Assembly: GCA_964500645.1 (NCBI GenBank)
Contig: CAZCOH010000006.1
Location: forward strand, 1,492-65,491
Source: an uncultured Dehalococcoidia bacterium
Lineage (GTDB): Bacteria; Chloroflexota; Dehalococcoidia; Lucifugimonadales; UBA826
Direction: 5' to 3'
Length of the DNA stretch: 64,000 nt
Shown: in pieces, positions 4,967 through 61,452 of the stretch
Layout: each line of letters opens with the position of its first letter
Position numbering within the stretch: the first letter of the stretch is position 1
Program-made: the position numbers and the translations under genes
The notes under the pieces: generated by a model
Database searches by the model: none
The model's input: the letters and a program-made list of their open reading frames with translations, nothing else
Told to the model about the DNA's origin: nothing

Positions 4967-4986
4967 AAATTCCTAAATCAACATTT

Positions 4987-40640: not shown

Positions 40641-40644
40641 GGAA

Positions 40645-45328: not shown

Positions 45329-45349
45329 AAACACGAGCAATTCGAGAAT

Positions 45350-46807
45350 TTAACGGACTCTGTTAATTGCTTTCTTTTTAATAGAGGTCAGCATTCCTCT
45401 GAAGATAACTGCGTGAAGGGGATATAGCATTATCCAGTATAAGCACCCGAAAATAGTATTAGTATGGAATGAAGCTGTTTGTGTAAGTTTGGTTTGATTT
45501 GCAGTTTGATCCAACGTGAATGATAGTGTTGCTTTTCCTGGTAGTCTCATCTCCGCCGTTAGTTCTACCATAGCGAGGTCAATGACTTTGGAAATCCTCC
45601 ACCAGTCAAGCGTGTCACCGACGACGAACTTGTCGCTAAACATCCTAGTTCTTCTCATGCCTACTCCCCCAAGTACCAAGTCGATCCAACCTCGTATTTT
45701 CCACAGATAATTGGCGAAATACCATCCGTTTCGCCCTCCAATATTATTCAAGGTTTTGAAAATTTCCTTTTTGGTGGCCGCTAGTTCGACGTTCCTGTGA
45801 TCTTCGAATTTGTATTTATAAATAATTTCTGGTTTATTAGAGCCTTTACCACCCGAAGATAAAGCGTCAAACCATCGACTGTGACCTGTATGTTTTTCAT
45901 CAGATTTAATTGCGTATTTTATGGCTTCCCTGTATGAGATAGGATTTATATTGAAGAGGTTTTGTCCCTCTCGATCAGTAACTATGCTGTCACTGGTGAG
46001 GCTGTCTATAAGCTTTCTTCCCGCACGTGCATATGCGGGCGTCACGAGGCCTAACCAGAGACTTGATAATCTTGGGGTAAGAACCGGTACGGATATCATG
46101 GCTCTTTTGTACCCAGCTTGTCTGCCAAATTCCTTCATCAATTCTTTATAAGAAATTTGATCTGGGCCACCTATTTGTATTATTCGGTCTGTCTCCATGA
46201 CTAGCTTTATTGATTGGGCGAGATATTCAATGACATCATCTACGCCAATTGGTTGTGAAAGGGAACTTACCCATTTAGGAGTTATCATTGCAGGCAATCT
46301 TTTGACCAAACTTTGTATTATTTCGAAAGAAAGCCCTCCTGATCCAATTATTATTGAGGCTTGGAATTCTAAACAAGGTATGTCCGACGATCTCAATACG
46401 TTACCGACCTGCATTCTGCTATCTAAGTGTTGAGATAGAACATCTTCCCCAGATGCTAACCCTCCTAGATAAACGATTTTCTTCACCTTGTTCGCTACAC
46501 ACGCCTCTAGAAAATTCTTAGCGCATATCAATTCTTTTTCTCGGAAATCCTTACCAGAATTTAAAGAATGTACTAAATAATAGGCAACGTCTACGCCTTC
46601 AAAATGATTGTTAACTGTTTTCTTTTCTAACAGGTCGCATTTCCTGATATCTAAGTCAAGGAAGCTATTTTTATTCATAAGGTATTCTGGATTTCGGGCG
46701 ATACACCTGACGTTAATTGACTCTTTTGACAACCTTACTAGCAGCCTTGAACCTATATAACCAGTTGCACCCGTTAATAGAACCGTTTTTAGATGTTGAG
46801 TTTCCAT
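45350..46807 (-). CDS. NAD(P)-binding SDR (NmrA-like) fused to a DUF2867-like C-terminal domain
   Basis: VLLTGATGYIGSRLL Rossmann motif. The C-terminal 170 aa (WYFANYLWKIRGWIDLVLGGVGMRR...) matches my recollection of DUF2867. Confidence 0.65.
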   Translation of the reverse strand: METQHLKTVLLTGATGYIGSRLLVRLSKESINVRCIARNPEYLMNKNSFLDLDIRKCDLLEKKTVNNHFEGVDVAYYLVHSLNSGKDFREKELICAKNFLEACVANKVKKIVYLGGLASGEDVLSQHLDSRMQVGNVLRSSDIPCLEFQASIIIGSGGLSFEIIQSLVKRLPAMITPKWVSSLSQPIGVDDVIEYLAQSIKLVMETDRIIQIGGPDQISYKELMKEFGRQAGYKRAMISVPVLTPRLSSLWLGLVTPAYARAGRKLIDSLTSDSIVTDREGQNLFNINPISYREAIKYAIKSDEKHTGHSRWFDALSSGGKGSNKPEIIYKYKFEDHRNVELAATKKEIFKTLNNIGGRNGWYFANYLWKIRGWIDLVLGGVGMRRTRMFSDKFVVGDTLDWWRISKVIDLAMVELTAEMRLPGKATLSFTLDQTANQTKLTQTASFHTNTIFGCLYWIMLYPLHAVIFRGMLTSIKKKAINRVR

Positions 46808-46812
46808 TTTGA

Positions 46813-48225
46813 CTATTTTAGTCCCTTTTTATATTCAAATAAGGCCTTTTTTCTTGCTTCATTTAAATCCACAACGGGATTTGGGTATAGATCATCTACA
46901 ACCCTTTTACTTTTCCCGTTTGATGATCCGCGGCCTTGGTATTGCCAAGGTTCATGAATGGCCTCCATTGGCGTGCTGGATAACTCGGGTATCCATTTCT
47001 TTATGTAGCAGCCTTTTGGATCAAACTTTTTTGCTTGAATCGTCGGATTGAAAATCCTGAAATATGGTGCTGAATTTAAGCCACATCCAGTTACCCATTG
47101 CCAGTTAAATGAATTAGCAGCGAGGTCGAAATCAACTAAATAATCTTTGAAGTGATTAGCTCCATGTGTCCAATGAATTAATAGATGCTTCACCAAAAAA
47201 GAGGCACATATCATACGTGCTCTATTATCAATATTGCCGGTGAGGAGTAATTTCCTCATGGAGGCATCCACTATCGGATATCCAGTCATTCCATTCTTCC
47301 ACAGTTCTAGCTTTGTTTGATCTTCACTCCAGTTTATGTATTCAAATCTTTTGTCGATAGAGACAGTGTCCATATTAGGATTCAACTTCATGCAGTGGCG
47401 AGCGAACAGTCTCCAGCCTATTCCACGCTTTATATTTTGAATATGAGGGTATTCCTGGTTGTCGGCAAACGCATAAATTTCTTTTAAAATTTTTAATGGT
47501 TCTATTGCCCCAGCGCTTATACAGGATGACAAATCGGACCTAAAACTTGTTTCTAAAGAGATTCCTTCCTCGGACTTCAAAGGTATTTCTGAACGAAGGG
47601 AATTATTAAGATATTGTACGCCGCCAGGTTCGCAGCTTTTATTGCATGAAGTTTCGTGATTGTTCTTAAAAGAAACTTCAGTTTCTTTTAAGAAGCTAGT
47701 AAGTTTGCAGGTAATGTTTTTATTTTGGTGGTGGGGTTTTTGGGATACCCAATTTTTGAGGATAAGGGATTCCAATTGATGCCAAAAGCTTTTAAATGTT
47801 TTAAACGGTCTGTCTAAGCCTTGAATTAGAATTAATTCTGAGTTTTCTTCTACGTGTGATTGTATGCCCTCTTTAGACAAGTTTAGGCTTAGGCGATTTT
47901 CTTCATTGCGTACAAGTAAATCTGAAGATGAATTCCAATGTACGTTTCTTATTTTTCTGATTTTGCATATTTTAAGTAATGCATCCATGGAGTCGACTTC
48001 TAGGAATGAAGCCGACTCGGTGTTGCGCAACCTGTTTTCTAGACAATGTAAAGCTTTGGCCTTCCAACTTGCTACATTTTTGTTGGCATGTAGATTGAAG
48101 GGTTCATAATTCACAACTAGTATTATTTCGGATTCCTTGAACGCACTTATAATACACGGATTGTCTTCTATTCTCAGACTCTGATTTATTAGCACAATCG
48201 AGGGTATATTTGGCTCTGCCGTCAT
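46813..48225 (-). CDS. Deoxyribodipyrimidine photolyase / cryptochrome family flavoprotein
   Basis: C-terminal FAD domain TGYPIVDASMRKL...NRARMICASFLVKHLLIHW...DFDLAANSFNWQWVTGCGLNSAPYFRIFNPTIQAKKFDPKGCYIKKWIPEL. Confidence 0.85.
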   Translation of the reverse strand: MTAEPNIPSIVLINQSLRIEDNPCIISAFKESEIILVVNYEPFNLHANKNVASWKAKALHCLENRLRNTESASFLEVDSMDALLKICKIRKIRNVHWNSSSDLLVRNEENRLSLNLSKEGIQSHVEENSELILIQGLDRPFKTFKSFWHQLESLILKNWVSQKPHHQNKNITCKLTSFLKETEVSFKNNHETSCNKSCEPGGVQYLNNSLRSEIPLKSEEGISLETSFRSDLSSCISAGAIEPLKILKEIYAFADNQEYPHIQNIKRGIGWRLFARHCMKLNPNMDTVSIDKRFEYINWSEDQTKLELWKNGMTGYPIVDASMRKLLLTGNIDNRARMICASFLVKHLLIHWTHGANHFKDYLVDFDLAANSFNWQWVTGCGLNSAPYFRIFNPTIQAKKFDPKGCYIKKWIPELSSTPMEAIHEPWQYQGRGSSNGKSKRVVDDLYPNPVVDLNEARKKALFEYKKGLK

Positions 48226-49346
48226 GCTACAAGTGTTTTTTGGTCTATGTAACTAGATCTAAATCCAAGGTTCTCTTCGTGAACAATCAAGTTTGATGAA
48301 GAAGTGTTTTCTATCTGAGAAAGTGCGTTGCCTACAATTCGATCCAGTAATCTAGGGTATTCATAATATTTAGGTAGAATAACTATCTCAGCTGACTCTT
48401 TTGATGCTACGTCCATTAGTGTTTGCAAGCCGTGCTGAGGAGCTAATAATGCTTTGCAGTTAACACCTTTGTTGGTAAACCGTTCCATCTGATTTGCTAA
48501 ATGAACTCTTCCTATGTTTCTTATTGTGTTTTGGTCTAGAGGCATTTTGGTCAGCTCACCACTCCCGGGAGGACCTGGCTTTACAAAATAGGAGGCAGCA
48601 GAAATGTCATACAGCATTGCCTCTGCATTTAATTCAAGGCACATGTCTATAGCGTCGTTTATCAAAGATTCAGAAATCTCTGTTGATTCGTCAGCTGATT
48701 TATCCTGAGTGACTATGATAATTTTTTCTACGTCCCTGCCGATATTCCGTGCTATTTTTTCTGCTGTATCAGGTCCTTCAGCATTACCTAGTCTTACTGA
48801 ATCAAGATGCTGCATAAGTGATCTCACCACTCGTATGTCGGATGATGCGAATCCTTGAAATTTTTTGCCTGGGTCTGACAATTTTCCTTTAGCAAACAGG
48901 TCGTCTGAAATTTCCCAACCCACAAAAGCTATAGGTGACGGATTCTCTACTACTAGGAACCATTGATTTTCAACGTTCTCGGGGGATTCGCTGATTTTAG
49001 TCCAGTTATCTATAGCCGATGAATATTTTTCTGAAGCCTCGTTTATTCCGTAAGCGTTAATCCTAATACCCATACTACGTAATTCTTTGTAACGATTAAT
49101 TTCTTTGTCCAATTTGTCTATATTCTGAAAACCTACGTATAGTGTTACGTCGCTCGGATTTTTCTTGATTTCGTCTTCTATCTCGCGAGTTATTCCGAGC
49201 ATTTTTTTTGTGCTGTGGATGAACTCAAATCCTTCTATAGGGAGTCCGTCAGATCTAAGCGATTGGTCCATTCTCAATACCAATTCTCTGACTCCATTTT
49301 CCTCCTTTTCAGGCAGTTCTTTACTTAGTTTCCAATTGAAATACAT
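48222..49346 (-). CDS. Uncharacterised two-domain protein: N-terminal DICT-like sensor domain plus C-terminal USP-like alpha/beta domain (tentative)
   Basis: The N-terminal half has LYVGFQNIDKL..RYKEL...GIRINAYG...NQWFLVVENPSPIAFVGWE. The C-terminal half has KIIIVTQDKS...AEIVILPKYYEYPRLLDRIVGNAL...LIVHE. The stop overlaps the photolyase start (ATGA). Confidence 0.4.
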   Translation of the reverse strand: MYFNWKLSKELPEKEENGVRELVLRMDQSLRSDGLPIEGFEFIHSTKKMLGITREIEDEIKKNPSDVTLYVGFQNIDKLDKEINRYKELRSMGIRINAYGINEASEKYSSAIDNWTKISESPENVENQWFLVVENPSPIAFVGWEISDDLFAKGKLSDPGKKFQGFASSDIRVVRSLMQHLDSVRLGNAEGPDTAEKIARNIGRDVEKIIIVTQDKSADESTEISESLINDAIDMCLELNAEAMLYDISAASYFVKPGPPGSGELTKMPLDQNTIRNIGRVHLANQMERFTNKGVNCKALLAPQHGLQTLMDVASKESAEIVILPKYYEYPRLLDRIVGNALSQIENTSSSNLIVHEENLGFRSSYIDQKTLVA

Positions 49347-49700
49347 TTACTTTCCTTTTAGTACGCTTTTAAAAACTTCGATATTATTTATTTGCAAATG
49401 TGGTCCCGTGACTAACCTCGCTATAGTGCCAGGCTCAATATCAAAACCGATTCTTGCTATTACTTTCGACTCTTTTTTTATTAGGATAGTGAGTCCGAGT
49501 TTGGCGAGAATCGAGCCAAATTTTTTTATAGAGGCAAAACTTACGGGGATCTCAGAAAAACCTCTTATACTTCTGATTTCGAATTCCTTTATCTCCACCT
49601 CAATATATTTATCGTTAAATTCAATATTGCTTTTTAGGTAATCTGAATCAACTAATAATGAACCTGATACCGAAATTCCCGTTGTTTTTCTAGGTAGCAT
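49347..49700 (-). CDS. Hypothetical protein (117 aa)
   Basis: The ORF abuts the downstream start and overlaps the upstream ORF by 11 nt. No family was recognised. Confidence 0.4.
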   Translation of the reverse strand: MLPRKTTGISVSGSLLVDSDYLKSNIEFNDKYIEVEIKEFEIRSIRGFSEIPVSFASIKKFGSILAKLGLTILIKKESKVIARIGFDIEPGTIARLVTGPHLQINNIEVFKSVLKGK

Positions 49701-49917
49701 CTGGAGCTTCTGCTTTTTGAACTTCGGTGGTGCTTATACTGACCATTCCATTTATGCCCCAATCTGCTTTTTCTGAATTTTCGCCTGTGGTCTGAGGTAC
49801 TGATACCTTTAGGTCTTGGAATCGGTAATTAATGGTTGTTCCATTTCGGTTCAGAAATTCATACAGTCCTTCTGCGAGATCGATCCATGCTTTTAAAGAT
49901 GTTTTGTTAGAAGTCAT
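49690..49917 (-). CDS. Hypothetical protein (75 aa)
   Basis: The ORF lies 25 nt downstream of the zinc-ribbon ORF and is co-directional with it. No family was recognised. Confidence 0.4.
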   Translation of the reverse strand: MTSNKTSLKAWIDLAEGLYEFLNRNGTTINYRFQDLKVSVPQTTGENSEKADWGINGMVSISTTEVQKAEAPDAT

Positions 49918-49942
49918 TATTTAAGTTCCTTTATTTCGTTGA

Positions 49943-50092
49943 TTAAGCTGCTTTTTGTTTAGGTTCTTTCGTTTCTCTCGACACTATTTCTTTGAAACTT
50001 CTTCCGCACATAAGACATTTGTGTTCTATGCCCAAATGGCCGTCGAAATGAACGATATTACCCCCACATCTACTGCAATTGCCCATATGCAT
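49943..50092 (-). CDS. Small zinc-ribbon protein (49 aa), not in the ORF track
   Basis: AAGGAGGTG lies 7 nt upstream of the ATG. The protein is MHMGNCSRCGGNIVHFDGHLGIEHKCLMCGRSFKEIVSRETKEPKQKAA, with a CxxC...CxxC pattern. Confidence 0.5.
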   Translation of the reverse strand: MHMGNCSRCGGNIVHFDGHLGIEHKCLMCGRSFKEIVSRETKEPKQKAA

Positions 50093-50243
50093 ATTAATGC
50101 ACCTCCTTTACGTAATTTTCTTTATGACACAAATAATAACAATGTTTGTTAAAAAGCACAATAGTGTATTTTAAATCATTAATTACAAATAACAAAAGTC
50201 TATCTTAAGAGGTGATTGATAAAACTATTTTGATTGCTACGTG

Positions 50244-50993
50244 TTAATCAGACGAGATATTGAGGCGTCTTTTTTTACGCCATATAAATATTGATCCAGT
50301 GAAAAGGAAAATAAGAGCAATGGGGGACAAGACAGAAACATATTTAAGGTATTGAGGTTTATTTTGGGAAGTTATGTCTTTTTCTGCCAATAGAGAAGAA
50401 TGGAATTTTCTGACCTCGGTAATTGTACTCGGTAGCCTTCCCATATCCGATATCCCAAAACTCTCTTCTTTGCCTATAGCGACCCAGAGCTTACCAACCT
50501 TTATTTCGTCTTTAATGCTGACTAGGTAATAAGTACCATCTTCGGGAAGTTCCAGCGTGATTTCTCCAAAAACCCATGAATGGGTGTCTGAATAGGGTTC
50601 GTGAAATAACCTAGGGGTTTTTATTGAAGTATCAATCAATTTACTGGATGTTGAGGTAACCTCTTTTTTGGGTGAGGAGGGCTTTATTAGATATAGCGAG
50701 GGTCTGAAATCTTCTAGATCTAGTATCTTCGGTACGCCAATTTGCACATATAAATCTTCTTTTTTTGAGCCGTAAAATTTTATCCATGAAGTAGGTCTGG
50801 ATTCACTTAGTGTTTGGTAAATCGCTTTAGAAATGTGGATGTCGTTTATTGGCAACGCAGTCTCTGCCTCAAAATGTTCGTCTTTGGAAAGATAAGGGAT
50901 GTGAGCCTCTGAAGAGGTGTAGTTCATTGACACAAAGTATGCGACAGCTACAAATGTGGCGAGGAATACTTTGTGAAGGAGATTTGCTGGCAA
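50244..50993 (-). CDS. Exported protein with a C-terminal TM anchor, unknown function
   Basis: N-terminal signal-like VFLATFVAVAYFVSMNYTSSEA|HIPY. C-terminal helix VLSPIALIFLFTGSIFIW plus RKKRR. Confidence 0.5.
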   Translation of the reverse strand: MPANLLHKVFLATFVAVAYFVSMNYTSSEAHIPYLSKDEHFEAETALPINDIHISKAIYQTLSESRPTSWIKFYGSKKEDLYVQIGVPKILDLEDFRPSLYLIKPSSPKKEVTSTSSKLIDTSIKTPRLFHEPYSDTHSWVFGEITLELPEDGTYYLVSIKDEIKVGKLWVAIGKEESFGISDMGRLPSTITEVRKFHSSLLAEKDITSQNKPQYLKYVSVLSPIALIFLFTGSIFIWRKKRRLNISSD

Positions 50994-50994
50994 C

Positions 50995-51909
50995 TTACTC
51001 TCTCTTAGATGGGATTCTCAATCTATGTATAAAGCCGCGTGATGGCGATTCAAGATTATCAATATGCTTATCAGGTTTGCTATAGAAAGGGACTTTTAAG
51101 TGATGGAATAATTTATAAGCATGTTTCAGTATATTGATTTCGGTGAAAAGCACAGTTTTCATTATTGAAGGACAAATCTTCCAAAGGTTAAAATTTGTCA
51201 TTTGGACAAGCTTTGCTCTGAATAAGGTGGTGATCATTATTTCTGACCTTTGGTGAAGAGTGATCGTTATCTTTAGGTCATCAGGCGAGAGATGAAAATT
51301 GAACTCATATTCTCCAGTTCTTTCTAGAAAAGGGGATACGTGAAGTTTTTTTGACGACCAGTAATTTCCTTGAGATTGATCGAACTGAACTTCGTCAAGA
51401 TAATATAGATGAGACTCACTGAAAGTATTATTTACTTCAGCTATAACTGATTTTATATCATTGCACGAATTAACCACTAAATAGAAAACTATAGGGTTGA
51501 ATCCGTATCCAAAGACTGAAGGCGTGGTAAGTAGATATACTTTATCGTCCCTCGTAAATTGCGATGTTTTTTGGCTTAAGAAGTCCTCAATTTTTTGTTT
51601 AATAGAAGTGGTGGATTTGTCTATGTAGTTATCGTTTTTGATTGAAAGAAACCCAAATTTGGTTAATGGGAATTTCCAGCCAAAATCGCCCGTTGTAAGT
51701 AGATCTGCCTGGTCTATGAGCAACATCGTATGTGTTGACTTAAACGTGTTCTGCACTGGGTAGAACCGACTATGAATCAATTCCCCGCGAGCTATAGAGG
51801 AGTCTACTAACTTGACTATATTATTACCTCTGCGTTTATCATATCTGCCACTTGTTGACCTGACCTGAATCCATCTTCGTGAAATCCGTATCCTGTGTAG
51901 GCTCCACAA
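50995..51909 (-). CDS. DUF1365 protein (UfaO-like); start uncertain
   Basis: ARGELIHSRFYPVQNTFKSTHTMLLIDQADL and FGYGFNPIVFYLV match the DUF1365 pattern. The track TTG start overlaps the upstream gene by 94 nt. Confidence 0.7.
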   Translation of the reverse strand: MWSLHRIRISRRWIQVRSTSGRYDKRRGNNIVKLVDSSIARGELIHSRFYPVQNTFKSTHTMLLIDQADLLTTGDFGWKFPLTKFGFLSIKNDNYIDKSTTSIKQKIEDFLSQKTSQFTRDDKVYLLTTPSVFGYGFNPIVFYLVVNSCNDIKSVIAEVNNTFSESHLYYLDEVQFDQSQGNYWSSKKLHVSPFLERTGEYEFNFHLSPDDLKITITLHQRSEIMITTLFRAKLVQMTNFNLWKICPSIMKTVLFTEINILKHAYKLFHHLKVPFYSKPDKHIDNLESPSRGFIHRLRIPSKRE

Positions 51910-53072: not shown

Positions 53073-53079
53073 AATGACT

Positions 53080-54108
53080 CTAATTTCTCTTTTTAAAAAG
53101 GTAGTGAATTATGTACCATTCACCGCCGTCTCTGTAATTGAATAGCTCGGAGCAAAAAATTAGAAATAGCTTGTAACGATTGAAATGCTTTGCTCTTTCT
53201 TTTCCATAACCGTTCTCATCCATGTCTCTTAATATGATCTTTTTATTCAATTTGAAATTACTTAACCAGGATTCCAGACTCCGGTGATAATTGTGGCCAG
53301 ATAATTTCCAGACCTCAATGTTTTCAAGGTTAGAATTTAGTTTTTTATAAAACCCGTCATATGGCATCATTCCTCCTGTAAAGAAATTTTTCGACATCCA
53401 GGAGGTTTTTTGGTTATCGAAATACTGCGGGTACACTTTATGTGAGAAAACCTGAATAAATAAGGTTCCCCTCGAATTTAGCCAACCGTCTATTCTACTC
53501 ATTAAGGTTTTGGGGTTCCTGATATGTTCGAACATTTCAATAGAAATTATTCGATCATACTTACGCGTAGGTACATATTGATTGATATCGCATTTCACAA
53601 CTTCTAGGTTGTATAAATTTTGTTGAGAAGCCTTTTGCTCTATGTATTGTTTTTGGGTTGTAGAGTTTGTAACTGCTGTTACAAACGTTTTTTTATATAA
53701 GCTTGCAATTTCTAGCGATAAAGATCCCCATCCGCATCCTAGTTCCAAAACTGAATCACCGTCTGCAATACGACATTTATTGATGTAGTTTCGTAGTGTT
53801 TGAAAGTCTGCTTCCTTTAGGTCGTAAGAGTCACTGGACCATTCTGAGCCACTGTATTTCATGGAAGGACCTAAAAAGTATTCGTACACTGAGGAACTCA
53901 TCTCATAGTGTTGGTGATTCGCCTCTTCAGTATTAATGGCTATTTCTGAATTTGAAGAGGTTAATTTGAATGCTTGTCTTATCTTATGCAGTTCGTTATT
54001 GCTGAGTTCTAAAATTCTAGATTCATATTTTTTTAGTCCCAGGCGGACAAACAACCTTAGTACACGTTCAGGAACCAACCCGCTGTCTATGATTGACTCA
54101 TACCACAT
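53080..54108 (-). CDS. CFA-synthase-family SAM-dependent methyltransferase (second paralog)
   Basis: HYEMSSSVYEYFLGPSMKYS, SAM motif VLELGCGWGSL, and ISIEMFEHI. Confidence 0.8.
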   Translation of the reverse strand: MWYESIIDSGLVPERVLRLFVRLGLKKYESRILELSNNELHKIRQAFKLTSSNSEIAINTEEANHQHYEMSSSVYEYFLGPSMKYSGSEWSSDSYDLKEADFQTLRNYINKCRIADGDSVLELGCGWGSLSLEIASLYKKTFVTAVTNSTTQKQYIEQKASQQNLYNLEVVKCDINQYVPTRKYDRIISIEMFEHIRNPKTLMSRIDGWLNSRGTLFIQVFSHKVYPQYFDNQKTSWMSKNFFTGGMMPYDGFYKKLNSNLENIEVWKLSGHNYHRSLESWLSNFKLNKKIILRDMDENGYGKERAKHFNRYKLFLIFCSELFNYRDGGEWYIIHYLFKKRN

Positions 54109-54112
54109 GTCG

Positions 54113-55303
54113 TTATTTCTTCTTAAAGGAGAATTGAAAATTACTTATGTGACCTGACTTAAACGCACCTGCACAATATGAAAAATAGTAGAAAAAACGT
54201 CGGTAGTCATTATCATCGAATCCTAAGTCATGAATAAGTTGCCGGTTTTTTTCTAGGGTTTTCTGCCAAGTAATCAACGTCTTTGGATAATGACTACCGA
54301 TCTCGCTTTCTCTGTATATCTCAAATCCACAATCCGAAGCTGACTGCTTTATTAGTCCGGTTGGAAGTAGGAGTCCTCCGGGGAATATGTATTTTTGAAT
54401 GAAGTCACAATTTTTTCTATACGATTCGTATCTTTCATCTGGTATTGTTATAACTTGGAGTTGTAGGGTGCCATCAGTCCTAAGTAATGTGGCACATTTA
54501 GAGAAAAAATCACTGATTCCTTTGTGGCCAATCGCTTCTACCATTTCCACGGAGAAAATATGATCATATTTTCCGGATAAGTCTCTGTAATCCAGTAATT
54601 GGATGTCTATTGCATCATTAAGCCCAAGGTTTGCGAATTTTCCTTTGCTGTAATTGTGCTGGCTTTCAGAAAGAGTAATAGCTGAAACTTTTGCCCCGTA
54701 GTCCGATGCAGCAATTATTGGGAGGTTACCCCAGCCGGAACCGATATCAAGGATATGGTCATCAGCCTTCACAGGAGCAGACTTCATCATCACATTGATT
54801 TTTTCGGCTTGTGCCTCTTCTAAGGAATCGGAAGTCTCGTTATAGATCGCGCAGGAGTATGTAAGAGAGGGGTCCAAAAAGCAGGAAAAAAATTCGTTAC
54901 TAATGTCGTAATGGGATTTTATGTTGTTTCTGGATTGTTTTCTTGTGTTACGGACTCTAAAGGATTGAATAATTTTAGAATAAATTTTCAGAGGGGCAAT
55001 TTTTGAAATAAGTTGACGTTTCTCTTGCCCTGACGTTATGGAAATATATTCAAATAATTCTGTTAAATCAGAGTGAGTCCATTTGCCGTCGATATATGAC
55101 TTTGCGAAACCCAAATCATAGCCGTATACAAGGTCAGTAAAAAAAGACCAATCATTCACCTGTATTGGATCTACGGATCTATTGCCGTTATCGAATACGT
55201 GACGAATCCCATCTGGTGTCGTTATAGGAATGCCTGCTTTACTAAAGTTAGATAGGACTTTTTTGTAAAGTAGCTTTCCGATATACGTACTAATAGTATT
55301 CAA
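54113..55303 (-). CDS. Cyclopropane-fatty-acyl-phospholipid-synthase-family methyltransferase
   Basis: HYDISNEFFSCFLDPSLTYSCAIY, ILDIGSGWGNL, SVEMVEAIG and FIQKYIFPGG. Confidence 0.8.
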   Translation of the reverse strand: MNTISTYIGKLLYKKVLSNFSKAGIPITTPDGIRHVFDNGNRSVDPIQVNDWSFFTDLVYGYDLGFAKSYIDGKWTHSDLTELFEYISITSGQEKRQLISKIAPLKIYSKIIQSFRVRNTRKQSRNNIKSHYDISNEFFSCFLDPSLTYSCAIYNETSDSLEEAQAEKINVMMKSAPVKADDHILDIGSGWGNLPIIAASDYGAKVSAITLSESQHNYSKGKFANLGLNDAIDIQLLDYRDLSGKYDHIFSVEMVEAIGHKGISDFFSKCATLLRTDGTLQLQVITIPDERYESYRKNCDFIQKYIFPGGLLLPTGLIKQSASDCGFEIYRESEIGSHYPKTLITWQKTLEKNRQLIHDLGFDDNDYRRFFYYFSYCAGAFKSGHISNFQFSFKKK

Positions 55304-56395
55304 CTAAAGACTCTGTAATTTAATTTTCGTAGGTTCCTGAGAGAAATCTTTTAAATAACCCTCAATGTTCATTTTTTCCGTAACCCATCTTTTTAGGATG
55401 GTCCTAAATCTGTACTCTATAAGCTCGGGGAATGTCATTGGACTCAGACCTTCGCTCGACTCTAGGCCCAAATGTTCTAATACTATTTCTCCGACTAAGC
55501 CGTGGCCACCTCTGATGTTTCCAAGCGCCTTTGAGACAAAAACGTTTGGGACGTATCTTAGAAACCTTTTTTCCTTCAAGGAAGCGTATCCTACAATCAA
55601 TTCACCGAGTTTTGCTTTGTCTTGAAGCATTTCGTTAATATTTCCTATTATTCGTACTAAAAGTGCCGTAATGTCCCCATTCATTCTAGGTATCCATTTT
55701 TGAGTTTTGGACTCTATATTTGCGACCAAAGGTATGTGGTTTGAAGGCATTTGAAAGTTTGATATGGCGTGGGTTATCTGTTTCATTAACCCGGGATCTG
55801 ATTCAAGTTGTATAGCAGTTAAATTTCTGAACTGAACTGTGTGTAGGGCTTCTCTCCCTTTGACTTTGCTAAGAATCTTAGTAGTGTTACTTTCCTCGGG
55901 GAAAAATCCACGTTGAAGTTCGTACCAATAGTCTGTTATGCATTCCTGTATCATTCCGTAGGTGGTAAGTTCAATAGGGTGATATCCAGAGCTATGAACC
56001 TCCTGATAAGATACACTGTCGAATGCTTCCTGAACCTGTTGTTCAAGTTCCGATTTATCAATACCGAAGTCTACTAAGATATTTTTAAACGGGTCGGCAT
56101 GTCCTCTTTCATCCGGGGCCCAAAATCCCGTGACATAGTTGCTTAGCCAGAATGCACCATGATCTTTAGCTCCTGCTAAGTAGGTGTCTGCGTATTGTTC
56201 AGTTAAGGATTCGGTGATAAAAGAAAGCTTGAAAGTGTCCACTAGGTCTGAGGCAGACATCTTACTCTGAGCAATAATTTCTTCTGGTTTATAGGTCTCA
56301 AACATTGAATCTAAGTCACTTTGATTTACTGTTTGTAACTTAGGTATTTGTTTGTTTACGTACGACTCCAGTATTTTGGTCGTTACATCATCCAT
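55304..56395 (-). CDS. Ferritin-like diiron protein resembling soluble acyl-ACP desaturases
   Basis: The pattern is E...ExxH...E...ExxH: SLTEQY, WAPDERGHAD (compare WTAEENRHGD of acyl-ACP desaturases), IQECITDYW and GREALHTVQF. Confidence 0.5.
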   Translation of the reverse strand: MDDVTTKILESYVNKQIPKLQTVNQSDLDSMFETYKPEEIIAQSKMSASDLVDTFKLSFITESLTEQYADTYLAGAKDHGAFWLSNYVTGFWAPDERGHADPFKNILVDFGIDKSELEQQVQEAFDSVSYQEVHSSGYHPIELTTYGMIQECITDYWYELQRGFFPEESNTTKILSKVKGREALHTVQFRNLTAIQLESDPGLMKQITHAISNFQMPSNHIPLVANIESKTQKWIPRMNGDITALLVRIIGNINEMLQDKAKLGELIVGYASLKEKRFLRYVPNVFVSKALGNIRGGHGLVGEIVLEHLGLESSEGLSPMTFPELIEYRFRTILKRWVTEKMNIEGYLKDFSQEPTKIKLQSL

Positions 56396-56419
56396 TAGTG
56401 TTTATTCCTGATTAGTCTT

Positions 56420-56899
56420 CTATTTACATCTGGATTCAAAATCTTTTGCCTTAGAAAGTATGGTTCCGTAGTCAGGAGCGTCACCAGGGTGTTTTCCAAC
56501 CCACTCAAATAACACATGACCTTCAGAATCGGTAAAGAAAACTGCTCTATTTGCCGACCTATAGTTCTCTACTCCTCCAAGCCCCTTAAATTCGACTTCA
56601 AATTGATCTATTAAACGTAGTTCATGATCACTTAGAAGGTCAAAATCGATTGCGTAATCATTCTTCCATTTTTCTAATACGAAGGTGGAATCCACGGTTA
56701 TTCCTGTAACTTTTGTGATTCCGGGATCAAGCTCATCCAAGTACAGGTTGAATTCTGTGAGTCCTAAATTGCATAAATCTGTGAAAGCTCCCGGGAAGAA
56801 GCAGACGATGTTTAAAGGAAAATCTGTATCAATTACAGGACGGGATTTTCGATTTTGATTATATAAATGTATTGGATCAATTTGCTTTCCAATTACCAT
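56420..56899 (-). CDS. Peroxiredoxin-like (AhpC/TSA, BCP-type) protein
   Basis: Universal PxxxTxxC motif as PGAFTDLC. The size of about 160 aa fits a thioredoxin fold. Confidence 0.65.
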   Translation of the reverse strand: MVIGKQIDPIHLYNQNRKSRPVIDTDFPLNIVCFFPGAFTDLCNLGLTEFNLYLDELDPGITKVTGITVDSTFVLEKWKNDYAIDFDLLSDHELRLIDQFEVEFKGLGGVENYRSANRAVFFTDSEGHVLFEWVGKHPGDAPDYGTILSKAKDFESRCK

Positions 56900-56914
56900 G
56901 TTTTAAACCTCTTT

Positions 56915-57454
56915 CTAAGTTTTGTGAAAAAAAATGACCCATAAAATTGCATCCATAATGAGACAGTGAAATGTTATGGCAGCTAGTCCTGCAAGCGCCA
57001 CAATTTTTTCCGTAGACGAAAAATCACTGCCGTCGTAAGTTGCCACACCCAAACATAAAAGTATAAGAGACAATGCCGTAATCCACAAAACTACAACGGT
57101 TAATATCCACCAAAAGTTGCTTCCTGAAATTATGTAAGTCAGCAAAAATGGCATCCAGCAGGCTGCTGATAACAAGAAAATAGCAGCAAGAATCGTTATT
57201 GAATGATTTCCAAGTAGCCAGTCATGACTGAAATGCGTCGCCCCGTCCTTAAATACTGCCATGTAACAAAACATTAAGTAGCCAATTGCGGCTATCAACA
57301 TTGATACAACAATTGCTTGTCGCCAGCTCGCACTTACTCCGCCCCACAAAGAATTTCTGTGTTCTGGGAAGTTTCCTATGCCAATAGCATACCCCCCTAA
57401 AACCAAGATGCCGCCAATGATGTTTACTAAAATGAAAGTCATCTGTGGGGACAT
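56915..57454 (-). CDS. Hypothetical membrane protein (about 5 TM), first gene of the long minus-strand cluster
   Basis: Hydrophobic helices. SD TGGAGT lies 9 nt upstream of the ATG. Confidence 0.5.
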   Translation of the reverse strand: MSPQMTFILVNIIGGILVLGGYAIGIGNFPEHRNSLWGGVSASWRQAIVVSMLIAAIGYLMFCYMAVFKDGATHFSHDWLLGNHSITILAAIFLLSAACWMPFLLTYIISGSNFWWILTVVVLWITALSLILLCLGVATYDGSDFSSTEKIVALAGLAAITFHCLIMDAILWVIFFHKT

Positions 57455-57494
57455 TTTTCTACTCCAAAAAGTGAGGTGAATTTTTAAAAGGTAT

Positions 57495-57512
57495 ATGTGT
57501 TATGATACACAT
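57495..57512. promoter_or_regulatory. Inverted repeat ATGTGT-TATGAT-ACACAT in the divergent promoter region (candidate operator overlapping a -10-like hexamer)
   Basis: The 6-bp arms are perfect and the 6-bp spacer TATGAT resembles a -10 box. It lies about 41 nt upstream of the start at 57454 and 149 nt upstream of the start at 57661. Confidence 0.25.
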
Positions 57513-57660
57513 GAGATTGCTTAAACACAAACAAATGGTTTTCCAATTATCTGGTTTAGTAACTGCTTGAATAAAGTGATTGAGACGCAGTAGACAAGCT
57601 ATAAGGCCAGAAACTGACGCATAAACATAGTTAGGTAGAGTAAAGGATCCAGAAGTACAT

Positions 57661-59091
57661 ATGAACGTTTTGATGGTAGGTAGCACCGGGTTTATAGGTA
57701 GAGCCACCCTTGCTTATTTACAGGGGAAAGGACACCGTGTAGCAGCGTGGGTTAGAGATTCTGAAAAAGCAAGAGATCTGTTAGGTGAAGGGATTAGAAT
57801 TCTCGGACCATTTGTAAACCCGACGGACCTTAGAAAAGAATTGGAATGGGCAGACTGTGTTGTGAATCTTGCCGGGAGACCTTTGGCCGGGGTGAGATGG
57901 ACCAAAAAAAAGAAGAAAGATTTTGAGGACAGTAGAATTGGATTAACCAACATCATTACTGAGGAAATCTCGAATTGCCAAAATCCTCCTAGTGTGTTCG
58001 TGTCAGCGAGCGCGGTTGGGTACTATGGAGATCGAGGATCGGAAGTTCTTACGGAAAGATCATCAAAAGGTGAAGATTATCTTTCCGATCTCTGCTCCAG
58101 TTGGGAAGAATCTGCGCATAAGGCAGAAAAATATGGGGTGAGGGTATGCACCTTAAGATTGGGGATAGTTTTGGGCAGGGAAGGCGGAATACTTAAACAA
58201 GTATTACCGGGATTTGAAATGGGTCTTGGAACTTACACTGGGGATGGTAACCAGCAACTATCATGGATACATCTTGCGGACGTGGCACGAGCTATAGAAT
58301 TTTGTATTTCTGATGAACGGGTCACAGGCCCGGTGAATATTACCTCTCCCAAACCTAGCACTAGCAAGCAATTTGCCTTAGAACTTGGTAGTGTGACAAA
58401 TGCGAAGATTGTACTTCCAATCGGATCTTTTCCTCTAAGAGTGATTTTCGGTGAAGGAGCCACGGTACTAACGAATAGTCAAAAAGCTATTCCACAAAAA
58501 TTGCAAGACCTTGGATTCGAATTTATCTACACAAGTTTGAATGATGTTTTCAAAGACGAAGTAACCCCTGATTCTGTGATTATTCAAAGGGTCAAAGATC
58601 ATGATTTGCTCCCTAAAGGAATTAAGGGGGATTACATATTAGAAACCGAAGTCTCTTTAAAAACTGGTTCTGAAGAGACTTTCGGGTTTTTCTCCTCACC
58701 GCTCAATCTGGGTCTATCTACTCCTTCTTGGGTCGGATTTAAAATAAAAGAAATGCCTAATGAGGTGAGAGAAGGTTCAGTAATTACATATCGTATTAAA
58801 GTTGGACCTATCCCACTGAAATGGAAGACGGTTATATGGGAATGGAATCCCAACGACTCATTTATTGATTTTCAGGAAAAAGGTCCGTACAAAGTGTGGC
58901 ATCACGAACATGAAATCATACCCAATGGACCTGGCGCCTCTATTATGAAGGATTCAGTCACATACACCATACCGGGAGGGCTTGTGGGCAGAATAATTCA
59001 TTCTATTTTCATAAAGAAAACTCTAATCCGTATATTTGGGTATAGAAGAAGGGTAATTCAACTGAGGTTCGAGAGGGAAATATATGCCTAG
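57661..59091 (+). CDS. TIGR01777/SDR39U1-type epimerase-family protein (with DUF1731) fused to a C-terminal SRPBCC domain
   Basis: MNVLMVGSTGFIGRA; SQKAIPQKLQDLGFEFIY (DUF1731-like); C-terminal GPYKVWHHEHEI...DSVTYTIPGGLVGRII...IFGYRRRVI. Confidence 0.75.
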   Translation: MNVLMVGSTGFIGRATLAYLQGKGHRVAAWVRDSEKARDLLGEGIRILGPFVNPTDLRKELEWADCVVNLAGRPLAGVRWTKKKKKDFEDSRIGLTNIITEEISNCQNPPSVFVSASAVGYYGDRGSEVLTERSSKGEDYLSDLCSSWEESAHKAEKYGVRVCTLRLGIVLGREGGILKQVLPGFEMGLGTYTGDGNQQLSWIHLADVARAIEFCISDERVTGPVNITSPKPSTSKQFALELGSVTNAKIVLPIGSFPLRVIFGEGATVLTNSQKAIPQKLQDLGFEFIYTSLNDVFKDEVTPDSVIIQRVKDHDLLPKGIKGDYILETEVSLKTGSEETFGFFSSPLNLGLSTPSWVGFKIKEMPNEVREGSVITYRIKVGPIPLKWKTVIWEWNPNDSFIDFQEKGPYKVWHHEHEIIPNGPGASIMKDSVTYTIPGGLVGRIIHSIFIKKTLIRIFGYRRRVIQLRFEREIYA

Positions 59092-59980
59092 TAAGAGCAA
59101 TGATGAAAAAGATTTACTAACAAACAAAATATGTGAAGAATTAGTAGAGGCGATGTTGGAGGCGGATAGAAATCGCTGTGAGTCCCTTATAGAAGGAGCT
59201 TTACTTAATAATTTGACGCCAGTTCAGATTTTTGATTCTGTAATTTCAGTCGCTCTTAACCGGATTGGGGCACTATGGCACAAAGGATCTATTACTATTG
59301 CTCACGAGCACGGTGCAAGTGAGATAGCACAGAATCTTATTGATTTTGTTTCTGATAAAACTCCTCATTTATCATCAAATGGCCTTACTGCTGTAGTGGC
59401 GGGAGTGGAGGGGGAACAACATGTTTTGGGCGCCAAGTTCTTTTCCGCCTTGCTGGAAGTGGAGGGATGGATTGTGCACTATTTAGGTTCCTCATTACCC
59501 AGTGATGATCTGGTGCAATATGTCGTTGAAAAAAACGTAGATGCGATTGTGCTGACTATAGTTCTACCTGACAATATTGATCATGCAGAACAATGCCTAA
59601 AAAAATTGCAGAAATTAGACTCTCCCCCGGTTGTGTTAGTTGGAGGTGGGGCTGTGATAGGAAAGGAACTAGAAGGAGCTGTAGTTGCAGAGAATTTGGT
59701 GTCTGGTCTCACCTTGCTAGAGTCAAATTTTGGAATGGGTAGTTCTATGTTCACACTAGACGACATTCTTTTGGGTATAGGACAAAACATACAAGACATT
59801 AGAAAATCTAGAGGCATGAATCAGGGTCAATTAGCCGAGGCAGCAGGCGTTGATAGAGCGTACATAAGTTTAGTTGAAAATGGTAAACAGAACCTGACAT
59901 TAGCTGCTTTAGTAAGGCTATCAGAAGCATTGTCGGTTCCCGTATCTGGAGTCATACCTGTTTCCACCTATAGACGTTGA
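59084..59980 (+). CDS. Cobalamin-binding (CarH-like photosensory signature) protein with a C-terminal XRE-family HTH
   Basis: W65-x9-E75-H76 (ALWHKGSITIAHEH), E111-x-H113-x-x-G116 (GEQHVLG), and a Rossmann-like B12 domain. The C-terminal HTH_3 is RGMNQGQLAEAAGVDRAYISLVENGKQNLTLAALVRLSEAL. The ATG overlaps the upstream stop by 8 nt. Confidence 0.8.
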   Translation: MPSKSNDEKDLLTNKICEELVEAMLEADRNRCESLIEGALLNNLTPVQIFDSVISVALNRIGALWHKGSITIAHEHGASEIAQNLIDFVSDKTPHLSSNGLTAVVAGVEGEQHVLGAKFFSALLEVEGWIVHYLGSSLPSDDLVQYVVEKNVDAIVLTIVLPDNIDHAEQCLKKLQKLDSPPVVLVGGGAVIGKELEGAVVAENLVSGLTLLESNFGMGSSMFTLDDILLGIGQNIQDIRKSRGMNQGQLAEAAGVDRAYISLVENGKQNLTLAALVRLSEALSVPVSGVIPVSTYRR

Positions 59981-60020
59981 ATTTAGGATTATTTGATTTC
60001 CCTAGGGAGTCTAAATAACT

Positions 60021-60479
60021 ATGGACTCAGAATTTTTTTTGCCGCTGATAGCCTTGGTGAATGTTTGCATATCTTGGTTCATGGTTGGCCTCATCTGGAT
60101 AATACAAATTGTCACTTATCCGATTTTTTCGTCTGTTGGCGGTTATAAATATGACAAGTTCCATTCAAAGCACGTCTCGTTGATCACTCCTCTGGTTGCA
60201 CCTTTAATGTTATTTGAATTGGCTGTAGCGGTAGTGTTATTGCTTGTGAGTGGACCGTATTGGAATTATGGATATTCTGTTGTAAATCTGGTTTTCCTAG
60301 CGATAATTTGGGCATCAACATTTCTAATCCAAATACCGTTGCACGTAAAATTGAGTGTTAAGTTTGAGAAAAAAAACCATACGAGGTTAGTCAGAACAAA
60401 TTGGATTAGGACATTTGCCTGGACAATGAAAGGACTTTTATCGACGATCCTAATTTTCAATCTGATTCAGAATACGTAG
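60021..60479 (+). CDS. Hypothetical 4-TM membrane protein
   Basis: Four hydrophobic helices. No family was confidently recognised. Confidence 0.45.
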   Translation: MDSEFFLPLIALVNVCISWFMVGLIWIIQIVTYPIFSSVGGYKYDKFHSKHVSLITPLVAPLMLFELAVAVVLLLVSGPYWNYGYSVVNLVFLAIIWASTFLIQIPLHVKLSVKFEKKNHTRLVRTNWIRTFAWTMKGLLSTILIFNLIQNT

Positions 60480-60480
60480 A

Positions 60481-61068: not shown

Positions 61069-61098
61069 CTCATTAATTATTTTGGATGAATAGTTTCA

Positions 61099-61452
61099 AT
61101 GGATAAACACACAAAAGAAGATCTCATTAGAGATGTTGAATTAGTAGAAATGATATTTGGTATTTTACCTTTAATATTATCTTCTATTATCATCCACTCG
61201 GGGACGTTGGATGAACTAGACCAATTTTATTTGGATTACCCAAAATATGTTTGGAACACAATTTTTATATTGTTGCCAATAGGTTTTTGGGCATCAGGTT
61301 TAGCTTACATCGTTTCCAAAGTAAACTACATGAGGATCAGGAATTATAGAGCAGTTAATTTACATTTATTAGTTCCAAACTTTTTGGGAATTGCCGCTAT
61401 TTTATTATTTACATGCGTAAACATATTCCTTTTCTACAGGTTTTATCTGTGA
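61099..61452 (+). CDS. Hypothetical membrane protein
   Basis: Three hydrophobic helices. No family was recognised. Confidence 0.4.
   Translation: MDKHTKEDLIRDVELVEMIFGILPLILSSIIIHSGTLDELDQFYLDYPKYVWNTIFILLPIGFWASGLAYIVSKVNYMRIRNYRAVNLHLLVPNFLGIAAILLFTCVNIFLFYRFYL

Follow-up and report, generated by a model that had tools for sequence, protein, structure and literature searches.

This study concerns a locus at positions 45350 to 59980 of a 64,000-nucleotide (64-kb) stretch of DNA, hereafter the window, from an uncultured Dehalococcoidia bacterium of lineage UBA826 (assembly GCA_964500645.1, contig CAZCOH010000006.1). The locus consists of a run of 14 minus-strand genes facing a plus-strand operon for a cobalamin (B12)-binding regulator with a C-terminal XRE-type helix-turn-helix (HTH) domain (B12-XRE). 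Our analyses indicate that it is probably a light-response regulon of the SAR202 group, governed by a CarH-like adenosylcobalamin (AdoCbl) photoreceptor whose output domain is of the XRE type. We are more confident of the narrower view, in which the regulator is a B12 protein of the photoreceptor type with a functional tie to these genes. The evidence comprises the domain composition of the regulator, its signature residues and fold, its linkage to the same genes in relatives, and a locus-specific DNA motif.

The regulator gene (59084-59980, plus strand) encodes a protein of 298 amino acids (aa) in which Pfam recognized B12-binding_2 (E = 3.5e-14), B12-binding (E = 2.2e-13), and HTH_3 (E = 3.6e-13). 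Residues 5-92 constitute a four-helix bundle and residues 102-215 a Rossmann domain, together the two-part cobalamin module of CarH and LitR. They are followed by an XRE/Cro-C1 HTH domain at residues 225-290 (HTH_3/HTH_31 at 233-288), for which the PDB sequence matches were C.BclI, C.AhdI, and SinR. XRE/Cro-C1 proteins have a five-helix domain of this type and recognize a palindromic operator, for which a candidate is described below. The DNA-binding domain is thus C-terminal to the cobalamin module and there is no N-terminal MerR winged helix. For this reason, we did not file the regulator as a member of the CarH/LitR family and describe it as CarH-like in its working.

Light-responsive cobalamin domains are separated from enzymatic ones by a signature of GxxW, EH, GxxH, and GxxxP motifs, established by spectroscopy and crystallography in a 2024 study (PMC11796333). 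The regulator contains the full signature, including the Wx9EH spacing and the lower-axial His of GxxH: IGALW65-H66, E75-H76, G110EQH113, and G135SSLP139. Using HMMER, W65-H66, E75-H76, and H113 aligned one-to-one with W131-H132, E141-H142, and H177 of Thermus thermophilus CarH (TtCarH). Among 32 homologs with identities down to 34%, the signature residues were invariant or at least 90% conserved. Sequence searches of the PDB returned the photocobilins 8j2x and 8j2w (E ~1e-19), the CtMerR cobalamin domain, and CarH as the top matches, ranking photoreceptors above corrinoid methyltransferase proteins and methionine synthase. The AlphaFold model of the regulator, with a predicted local distance difference test score (pLDDT) of 87.8, contains the four-helix bundle, the Rossmann domain, a short linker, and the five-helix HTH. 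In a fold search of the PDB with this model, the 12 best matches were experimentally validated B12 photoreceptors, again above methionine synthase. The target-normalized template modeling (TM) score was 0.82-0.84 against the CtMerR cobalamin domain and ranged from 0.8 to 0.84 over TtCarH and CtMerR.

To place the locus among relatives, genomes were scanned at one genome per species with peptide patterns specific to the close clade, and the window proteins were compared with the fetched loci (given L numbers below) using tblastn. The nearest public contig was from an uncultured marine Dehalococcoidia metagenome-assembled genome (MAG) with approximately 91% nucleotide identity. The scan yielded 18 full-length regulator homologs, all from SAR202, Dehalococcoidia, or Chloroflexota MAGs or single amplified genomes (SAGs). 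Twelve of the 15 genome loci with enough flanking sequence contained the divergent run of membrane protein, diiron protein, two CMAS-family methylases, amine oxidase, DUF1365 protein, and 249-aa protein. The same divergent arrangement occurred where the regulators were only 42-54% identical. A metagenome scan seeded with the 249-aa family added 7 loci having both regulator and cluster. An earlier note on this DNA, made from the window alone, had proposed linkage of regulator and cluster in other genomes as a test of its light-response reading. That linkage held in the 12 genome and 7 metagenome loci, and it is this conserved synteny, rather than the window by itself, that makes the arrangement more than chance.

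More distant members of the family extend this association. A profile search of 1.84 billion representative proteins returned 875 representatives at E <=1e-30. The best 150 were nearly all 280-330 aa in length and spanned both the cobalamin and HTH domains, and every named member was from Dehalococcoidia or SAR202. We inspected nine loci whose regulators are 30-36% identical to that of the window. In eight of them, homologs of the window cluster or other light genes stand beside the regulator, in several gene orders, and none of the nine neighborhoods contains a gene of cobalamin metabolism. It is this combination that argues most strongly for a light response under the control of the family. 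At P0072, the regulator is followed by genes for MFS, DUF1295, CMAS, amine oxidase, and a DUF1365::CMAS fusion; L078 has the same set in convergent orientation. L056 has a divergent 249-aa protein, SDR-DUF1731, and a separate SRPBCC protein, then DUF1722, SDR, DUF2878, amine oxidase, and DUF1365::CMAS. L074 contains DUF378, a 249-aa-like protein, SDR-DUF1731, and SRPBCC, and L073 contains SDR-DUF1731 only. In L076, from an abundant Tara lineage, the divergent genes encode a Zn-ribbon protein, two small membrane proteins, an SRPBCC-like protein, amine oxidase, and DUF1365, then SDR, Polyketide_cyc2, DCC1, photolyase, and SDR_DUF2867. In L077, the regulator is followed by heliorhodopsin (9960-10763) and faces small open reading frames (ORFs)/DUF378, SDR_DUF2867, and photolyase. 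L072 has a divergent Zn-ribbon protein, a small ORF, heliorhodopsin (2357-3142), DCC1, photolyase, and SDR_DUF2867. Nothing was recognizable beside the regulator of L075. No homolog of heliorhodopsin, DCC1, or DUF378 was found in the window.

The locus-specific motif lies in the spacer between the divergent operons. Reading of the orthologous spacers revealed a 14-bp near-palindrome, TGTnnTATAATACA, which the default repeat finder did not report. Using a matrix built from 15 sites, the window copy, candidate operator O1 (TGTGTTATGATACA, 57496-57509, TGT-N8-ACA), scored 20.5 bits. It is the only site above 13 bits in the 64 kb and the single exact IUPAC match in the window. A site of at least 15 bits is present in the spacer between the SDR-DUF1731 and membrane-protein genes of every locus that holds this spacer, including metagenome loci outside the training set. 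Stray matches numbered approximately 6 in approximately 0.9 Mb of fetched loci (5 in related loci, 1 in a control). The first cluster gene has its start codon 42 nt from O1, which contains a -10-like hexamer with an upstream TG. Across the loci, the motif keeps a conserved spacing of 34-49 nt from this gene, and its spacing from the SDR gene ranges between 25 and 170 nt. A weaker second site, O2 (ATTGCTTAAACACA, 57516-57529), is separated from O1 by a 6-nt spacer and is thus in a 20-bp register with it. In all but one or two of the 21 aligned loci, a second site ending in ACA is exactly 20 bp from the strong site, on either side; the exceptions are L008 and L006, the latter having its own anchor site in an atypically long gap. 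The motif contains a TGnTATAAT extended -10 directed toward the regulator operon and a TATCAT-like hexamer on the other strand. Thus, a protein bound to it would occlude both promoters. The motif is absent from all other promoters in the 64 kb, which argues that it is not a generic promoter, and its flanking TGT and ACA are conserved beyond any -10 consensus.

A related but weaker element occurs in the 151-nt gap within the gene run (50093-50243). It is an operator-like pair on the minus strand at 50147-50178, TGATTTAAAATACA-CTAT-TGTGCTTTTTAACA, with TGATTTAAAATACA at 50178-50165 and TGTGCTTTTTAACA at 50160-50147. The pair overlaps the -10 of a promoter-like TTGTTA-16-TAAAAT. The same arrangement is found upstream of the Zn-ribbon gene in L029, L033, L039, and L043, so that a degenerate copy is present in five loci. 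As a second operator, the gap element is suggestive rather than strong. At the distant family members, a TGTCAA recurs that is most likely a simple -35 box. Over 44800-61200, generic scans for sigma-70 promoters and terminators gave no useful information, returning fewer sites than shuffled sequences.

The layout of the locus was largely as the earlier note had described it. The ORF listing contains 14 consecutive minus-strand ORFs from 57454 down to 45350, separated by 15, 24, 0, 4, 7, -94, 1, 151, 25, -11, 0, -4, and 5 nt, matching the reported gaps. Pfam confirmed the labels given to the AhpC/TSA protein, the two CMAS proteins, and the Amino_oxidase, DUF1365, DICT, photolyase, and SDR plus DUF2867 proteins. 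The label of diiron protein proved weaker than had been stated, as the Pfam match is below threshold, and that of USP-like found no family support. The facing plus-strand operon encodes an SDR-DUF1731/SRPBCC protein, the B12-XRE regulator, and a small membrane protein. The B12-XRE protein had been presented as the only, divergently transcribed regulator. Indeed, no other regulator family was found in the window, but its gene is not adjacent to the cluster, being the second of the divergent operon. The statement that neither MerR-type regulators nor sigmaE-ChrR are present was likewise upheld: no MerR, sigma, or anti-sigma family was detected in the locus or elsewhere in the window, where the scan covered ORFs of 150 aa or longer. 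The locus therefore lacks the extracytoplasmic function (ECF) sigma/ChrR pair or MerR-type regulator that controls proteobacterial photo-oxidative regulons.

The CMAS, amine-oxidase-like, and DUF1365 genes of the run would, judging by protein family and clustering, correspond to the UfaM/UfaD/UfaO pathway of furan fatty acid synthesis, a connection that the earlier note had missed. In that pathway, UfaM, a CFA-synthase-type methylase, methylates cis-vaccenate; UfaD, a phytoene-desaturase-like flavin adenine dinucleotide (FAD) protein, produces the methyl-diene; the furan ring is formed when UfaO, a DUF1365 protein, inserts O2; and a second methylase yields the dimethyl form (PMC7380195). UfaM, UfaD, and UfaO suffice for furan fatty acid synthesis in two bacteria (PMC7380195). 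In the window, the methylases are two CMAS-family proteins dependent on S-adenosylmethionine: a UfaM/CFA-synthase-like protein (54113-55303, minus strand; PF02353, E = 5.6e-82) and a divergent paralog that is a candidate second methylase (53080-54108, minus strand; PF02353, E = 2.2e-35). The pair is kept across the related loci, and the two proteins match UfaM at the family level only. The UfaD-like protein is an FAD amine-oxidase/phytoene-desaturase-like protein (51816-53072, minus strand; PF01593, E = 4.2e-27) with weak matches to HpnE, phytoene-desaturase, and protoporphyrinogen-oxidase models. The gene for the UfaO-like DUF1365 protein (50995-51909, minus strand; PF07103, E = 7.6e-52) is adjacent to it and overlaps it. 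The start codon of this last gene is uncertain: the 94-nt overlap (51816-51909) hinges on a TTG at 51909, and no canonical start codon lies near the amine-oxidase stop, where GTC, AAG, TTA, and GTA are found. Overlaps of 40-91 nt between these two genes also occur in L006, L017, L029, and L055; the true start may be elsewhere, or some translational coupling mechanism may operate. DUF1365-CMAS fusions of 650-690 aa are encoded in L056 (16931-18892), L078 (11048-13081), and the P0072 locus (15490-17562), a Rosetta-stone link between the UfaO-like and methylase steps.

Upstream of the methylases, the run begins with a 179-aa polytopic membrane protein (56915-57454, minus strand), for which no family was found and which is the first cluster gene in all related loci. 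The peroxiredoxin that follows (56420-56899, minus strand; AhpC/TSA, BCP/PrxQ-like; Pfam E = 2.2e-14) scored under the cut-off of every NCBIfam thiol peroxidase model. It is accessory: its position varies between loci, and in most relatives it is encoded elsewhere. The third gene (55304-56395, minus strand) encodes a putative diiron-carboxylate protein distantly like soluble acyl-acyl carrier protein (acyl-ACP) desaturases. Its match to Pfam FA_desaturase_2 was 18.7 bits against a cut-off of 22.7, and the window copy was the only 1 of 11 orthologs to match. The candidate ligands E62, E96xxH99, E151, and E182xxH185 are invariant. In a fold search with its AlphaFold model (pLDDT 78), the 14 best PDB folds were plant acyl-ACP desaturases, followed by R2-like oxidases; the similarity to acyl-ACP desaturases was modest, with TM scores of 0.39-0.48 and E-values of 2e-3 to 3e-2. 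This orphan family was seen only in SAR202/Dehalococcoidia, and its product is the best-conserved cluster protein (55-63% identity by tblastn against related loci). No significant match resulted when the PDB was searched with profiles of the diiron, DICT, and 249-aa families.

The last gene before the 151-nt gap encodes a 249-aa exported, C-terminally anchored protein (50244-50993, minus strand) with a signal peptide and no Pfam or PDB relative. By alignment, the predicted mature N-terminus is at an invariant His31. The family has this His directly after the signal peptide (..SEA|HIP..), invariant FHEP and GKxW motifs, and a C-terminal FH before the anchor, a pattern reminiscent of a histidine-brace metal site. 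Members also adjoin distant B12-XRE genes, at L056 9854-10642 and L074 7985-8686. About a dozen metagenome loci (L057-L071) encode members with 28-33% identity and lack the cluster.

The distal half of the run begins past the gap with a 49-aa Zn-ribbon protein (49943-50092, minus strand) that has two CxxC motifs and a basic tail; the family pattern is CxxCGG[ND]...GxExxC[LIF][MQ]CG[RH]. Its homologs are the first genes divergent from distant B12-XRE genes, at L076 8710-8901 (E = 0.002) and L072 3568-3717 (E = 0.05), and since they stand beside the regulator there, the Zn-ribbon protein is probably an integral component of the system. A role as co-regulator or anti-repressor is conceivable. Next in the run are a 75-aa protein (49690-49917, minus strand), 53-66% identical in L009, L033, L039, and L043, and a 117-aa protein (49347-49700, minus strand) with similar-sized ORFs in the same position in L033 and L043. 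The next gene encodes a 374-aa DICT-domain protein (48222-49346, minus strand; Pfam DICT, E = 1e-7) with an uncharacterized C-terminal half. The DICT domain was present in 5 of 5 orthologs (best E = 6.9e-12), and neither the window copy nor the orthologs supported a USP-like half. A role of DICT in light response has been predicted, according to work cited in PMC8612252. The photolyase (46813-48225, minus strand) is of the class I/III cyclobutane pyrimidine dimer (CPD) type and has both expected domains, DNA_photolyase (E = 1.9e-11) and FAD_binding_7 (E = 7.9e-73). Its best PDB sequence matches were 4u63 (6e-54) and 1dnp, and it scored 219 bits with the NCBIfam model, under the equivalog cut-off of 506. 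The last gene of the run encodes an SDR (NAD_binding_10/NmrA in Pfam) fused to DUF2867 (45350-46807, minus strand). SDR_DUF2867 genes adjoin photolyase and distant B12-XRE genes in L072, L076, and L077.

The content past the lipid genes differs among relatives. The Zn-ribbon gene precedes the distal genes in L033 and L039. No recognized cluster gene follows the 249-aa gene in L049, and a peroxiredoxin is found there instead in L051, L052, and L011. In L029, the 75-aa gene abuts a GFO/IDH/MocA oxidoreductase gene. The suggestion that all 14 genes form one supercluster therefore stands for the conserved core and not for the photolyase block, which is accessory, nor for the peroxiredoxin, which moves. 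The locus is a conserved core with accessory modules.

On the other strand, the regulator operon opens with an SDR gene (57661-59091; Epimerase + DUF1731 in Pfam) that overlaps the regulator ORF by 8 nt. The C-terminal domain of its product, of approximately 170 aa, is SRPBCC/polyketide-cyclase-like; L056 and L074 encode its matches as separate Polyketide_cyc proteins, and L076 and L077 as stand-alone proteins of 150-174 aa. SDR-DUF1731 is the most constant partner of the regulator, being directly upstream of it in every genome locus that holds upstream sequence (L015 holds none). Forty nucleotides downstream of the regulator is the gene of a 152-aa protein (60021-60479, plus strand) that is multi-pass by its translation and has no Pfam family. 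With homologs in the same position in L001, L009, L013-L016, L036, L043, and L049, it is a variable third gene, into which the operon may extend. In nearly all related loci, the gene of PlsY, the acyl-phosphate:glycerol-3-phosphate acyltransferase (60481-61068 in the window), and the regulator operon are convergent, so that a phospholipid-synthesis gene is kept beside the fatty-acid-modifying cluster.

The remainder of the window encodes paralogous luciferase-like monooxygenases, 4 CoA-transferase III proteins, acyl-CoA dehydrogenases, MFS transporters, and a sulfatase, a content in keeping with a genome of the SAR202 type. Nine kilobases (3039-11972) contain 2 of the luciferase-like monooxygenases, the 4 CoA-transferase family III paralogs, an acyl-CoA dehydrogenase, and an enoyl-CoA hydratase, resembling the catabolic paralog expansion described for SAR202. 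At 36621-43986, a 1339-aa ORF lacking a Pfam match is followed by a 1113-aa ORF in which only FtsX/MacB-like C-terminal domains were recognized.

The following mechanism would account for the architecture of the locus. In the dark, the B12-loaded regulator would oligomerize, by analogy with CarH as a dimer of dimers, on the two 14-bp sites 20 bp apart (57496-57509 and 57516-57529), over the -10 region of the back-to-back promoters. From there, we infer, it would repress its own operon (SDR-DUF1731/SRPBCC, regulator, and 152-aa protein) and the opposing one, and the weaker copy of the element might serve the internal promoter at 50147-50178. Near-UV to green light would cleave the Co-C bond, the oligomer would dissociate, and the operons would be transcribed. 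The diiron desaturase-like enzyme may then supply a cis-unsaturated acyl chain, from which the UfaM-like methylase, UfaD-like desaturase, and UfaO-like DUF1365 oxygenase would build a furan fatty acid, the second methylase possibly giving the dimethyl form. Furan fatty acids are scavengers of singlet oxygen and radicals in membranes. The lineage of the window would also make the peroxiredoxin, the CPD photolyase, SDR-DUF2867, and the small or sensory proteins (Zn-ribbon, 75-aa, 117-aa, and DICT).

Several observations weigh against this proposal. The strong motif always points, as an extended -10, toward the regulator operon and could therefore be mainly a promoter element, in which case autoregulation would be the sole supported link. 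The gap element is weak, its score of 8.8 bits falling between the 95th (6.2) and 99th (10.4) percentiles of random 170-nt windows, and control of the distal half by the regulator is weakly supported. The SAR202-type operator matrix found nothing at the distant family members. The regulator occurs without the lipid genes in L003, L007, and L008. In L003, a poly-G run followed by GC-rich low-complexity sequence (~8290-8320), just upstream of the operator region, is a probable assembly join that may explain the seeming absence. L029, with approximately 89% DNA identity, joins window position 49627 directly to 45537 (L029 4005-4013) and so lacks the 4.09-kb block 45538-49626 encoding the 117-aa, DICT, photolyase, and SDR_DUF2867 proteins; this makes the distal half of the run a recent indel. 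The photolyase is also absent between DICT and SDR_DUF2867 in the three other lineages reaching that point (L033, L039, and L043). Both methylases scored under the cut-offs of all NCBIfam CFA synthase models. The supply of cofactor is uncertain as well: the window contains no B12 uptake gene, adenosylation gene, or cobalamin riboswitch, the last following from an Rfam scan that, like the tRNA scan, was empty over the whole 64 kb, and among euphotic SAR202, only some clades are reported to synthesize B12 (PMC11994032). Finally, a diel metatranscriptome showed no SAR202 periodicity and detected SAR202 transcripts only at 125 and 250 m (PMC6769238), and the title of L004 (SAG AC-647-P02), 'OGT_505m', indicates 505 m, so that this cell, which carries both regulator and cluster, may come from below the sunlit layer.

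It is possible, if on balance doubtful, that the regulation is as proposed and that the product is another lipid: a cyclopropane, mid-chain methyl, or methyl-diene fatty acid or a modified isoprenoid. The methylases are generic CMAS proteins under every NCBIfam equivalog cut-off, the amine-oxidase-like protein has the other weak matches listed above, and the orphan diiron, 179-aa, and 249-aa proteins are conserved extras unreported for the proteobacterial pathway. What speaks for furan fatty acids is that the three Ufa proteins are sufficient elsewhere (PMC7380195) and that the three families are adjacent or fused in all lineages examined. That the light sensor controls only its own operon, the opposing run answering to an unlinked regulator such as an oxidative-stress sensor and the adjacency being inherited gene order, appears unlikely. 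Besides the orientation of the strong motif in every locus and the weakness of the internal element, this explanation draws on SDR-DUF1731 as the sole invariant neighbor, kept without lipid genes in L003, L007, and L008 and standing alone in L073. However, it is the distance of the motif to the cluster (34-49 nt) that is conserved and not that to the SDR (25-170 nt); the regulators of P0072, L076, L077, and L078 are directly beside CMAS/amine-oxidase/DUF1365 or photolyase operons with no intervening SDR-DUF1731; and no other regulator family was found in the window.

We consider it quite improbable that the regulator, rather than sensing light, responds in the dark to how much cobalamin is available or in which form, reading this as a nutrient or redox signal. 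Its fold is common to non-photoreceptor corrinoid proteins, some of which (MetH, MtbC-like) were among the matches, the family goes under 'methanogenic corrinoid protein MtbC1/XRE' or 'cobalamin-dependent protein' in databases, and many SAR202 may be B12 auxotrophs. Yet conservation extends to all of the light-type signature residues, among them the W-H and E-H pairs that surround the adenosyl group, and validated photoreceptors outrank enzymes in both sequence and fold searches. The neighbors, moreover, are photolyase, heliorhodopsin, and photo-oxidative lipid genes, and never genes of B12 transport, B12 synthesis, or B12-dependent enzymes. Very improbable, in our judgment, is a chance concatenation of unrelated same-strand operons with no common function. 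The 4.09-kb indel between close relatives, the 151-nt gap whose promoter-like site splits the genes, and the movement or loss of peroxiredoxin and photolyase between loci would fit such a run, but its modules recur separately beside distant B12-XRE genes: SDR-DUF1731/SRPBCC with the 249-aa protein, CMAS/amine-oxidase/DUF1365, photolyase/SDR_DUF2867, and Zn-ribbon. In addition, the lipid genes of L033, L039, and L043 are succeeded by the Zn-ribbon, 75-aa, 117-aa, DICT, and SDR_DUF2867 genes, there without the photolyase and with a third ORF of approximately 117 aa. A light-response regulon under the B12-XRE protein thus remains the reading that we favor.

Among the closest known systems are the AdoCbl-dependent photoreceptor repressors CarH and LitR (T. 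thermophilus CarH, Myxococcus xanthus CarH, and Bacillus megaterium LitR). These have the same bundle and Rossmann cobalamin module, the same W-H, Wx9EH, and lower-axial His, and the closest folds after the photocobilins. The candidate operator here likewise overlaps the promoter elements of photoprotective genes, and a dark oligomer on repeated sites is plausible. The domain order is reversed: the XRE/Cro-C1 HTH is C-terminal here, whereas the MerR winged helix of CarH is N-terminal. The operator of CarH consists of tandem 11-bp direct repeats, and that proposed here is a pair of 14-bp palindromes at 20-bp spacing. The targets are lipid-modification and photolyase genes rather than carotenoid genes, and the host is a member of the Chloroflexota. 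The cobalamin module found its best matches, in sequence and in fold, among the photocobilins (8j2w and 8j2x, E ~1e-19), but these proteins carry a biliverdin-binding globin-like domain and control enzymes rather than DNA binding (PMC10979010). Light-responsive cobalamin domains are known to be fused to HTH domains at either terminus, and DICT is among the associated domains (PMC11796333). The supplement of that mining study names no XRE-fused protein, and in the literature searched, no XRE-fused light-type cobalamin protein was named, characterized, given a regulon, or placed in SAR202. Full-text searches returned no prior description joining CarH with XRE or SAR202 with CarH. Based on these searches, the proposed photochemistry and logic are known, and the output domain, phylum, and regulon are new.

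The effectors resemble those of the sigmaE-ChrR and MerR regulons of Proteobacteria, such as Rhodobacter sphaeroides RSP1087-1091 with ufaM and the Vibrio cholerae blue-light response. The common families are the CFA-synthase-type methylase, UfaD-like protein, DUF1365 UfaO, SDRs, and CPD photolyase, and the inferred purpose, protection from light-generated singlet oxygen, is the same. The furan fatty acid genes of R. sphaeroides belong to the sigmaE-ChrR singlet-oxygen regulon (PMC7380195), and blue light, acting through ChrR-sigmaE and MerR, induces a CFA synthase as well as photolyase-family operons of V. cholerae (PMC5241685), in agreement with the background on which the earlier note had relied. 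There, an anti-sigma factor or MerR protein answers reactive oxygen species; here, the candidate is a direct B12 photoreceptor, and the orphan diiron, 179-aa membrane, 249-aa exported, Zn-ribbon, and DICT proteins are additional conserved parts. The description of the locus as a differently wired light-response system gains from the linkage in relatives, the photoreceptor signature, and a fold closest to B12 photoreceptors, and is tempered by the presence of a strong operator at the divergent promoter only.

SAR202 are among the most abundant bacteria of the ocean. Exposure to light inhibits or kills the cultured strains of group I, and the proposed sensor, in strain JH545, is heliorhodopsin (PMC10444878). 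That cultivation study does not mention cobalamin or B12, and a 2025 study of euphotic SAR202 mentions no photoreceptor (PMC11994032). In heliorhodopsin-linked neighborhoods of monoderm bacteria, a DICT gene was once noted beside a heliorhodopsin (PMC8612252), and distant B12-XRE genes likewise adjoin heliorhodopsin and photolyase (L072 and L077); here, the candidate sensor and transcription factor is a soluble B12 photoreceptor, not a rhodopsin. The locus thus offers, as an alternative to the heliorhodopsin sensor, a soluble B12-based photoreceptor-repressor with a candidate operator and regulon. A more speculative extension, which we think rather unlikely as a whole, is that B12-XRE proteins are the principal transcriptional light switch of marine Dehalococcoidia, SAR202 among them, using scavenged AdoCbl as a consumable chromophore in a multi-component circuit with the Zn-ribbon and DICT proteins. 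If so, furan-lipid synthesis and photolyase would be under the control of this circuit, as would, in some lineages, heliorhodopsin, which would then be downstream of the B12 photoreceptor and not an upstream sensor. Light tolerance would depend on B12 supply, which could explain the death of cultured SAR202 in light. The regulon that we favor would itself extend CarH-type photoregulation to an XRE scaffold and a new phylum, predicts furan fatty acids in Chloroflexota membranes, and would tie light tolerance to the B12 economy of the sea. The optogenetics toolbox would also gain a compact repressor-operator pair controlled by light.

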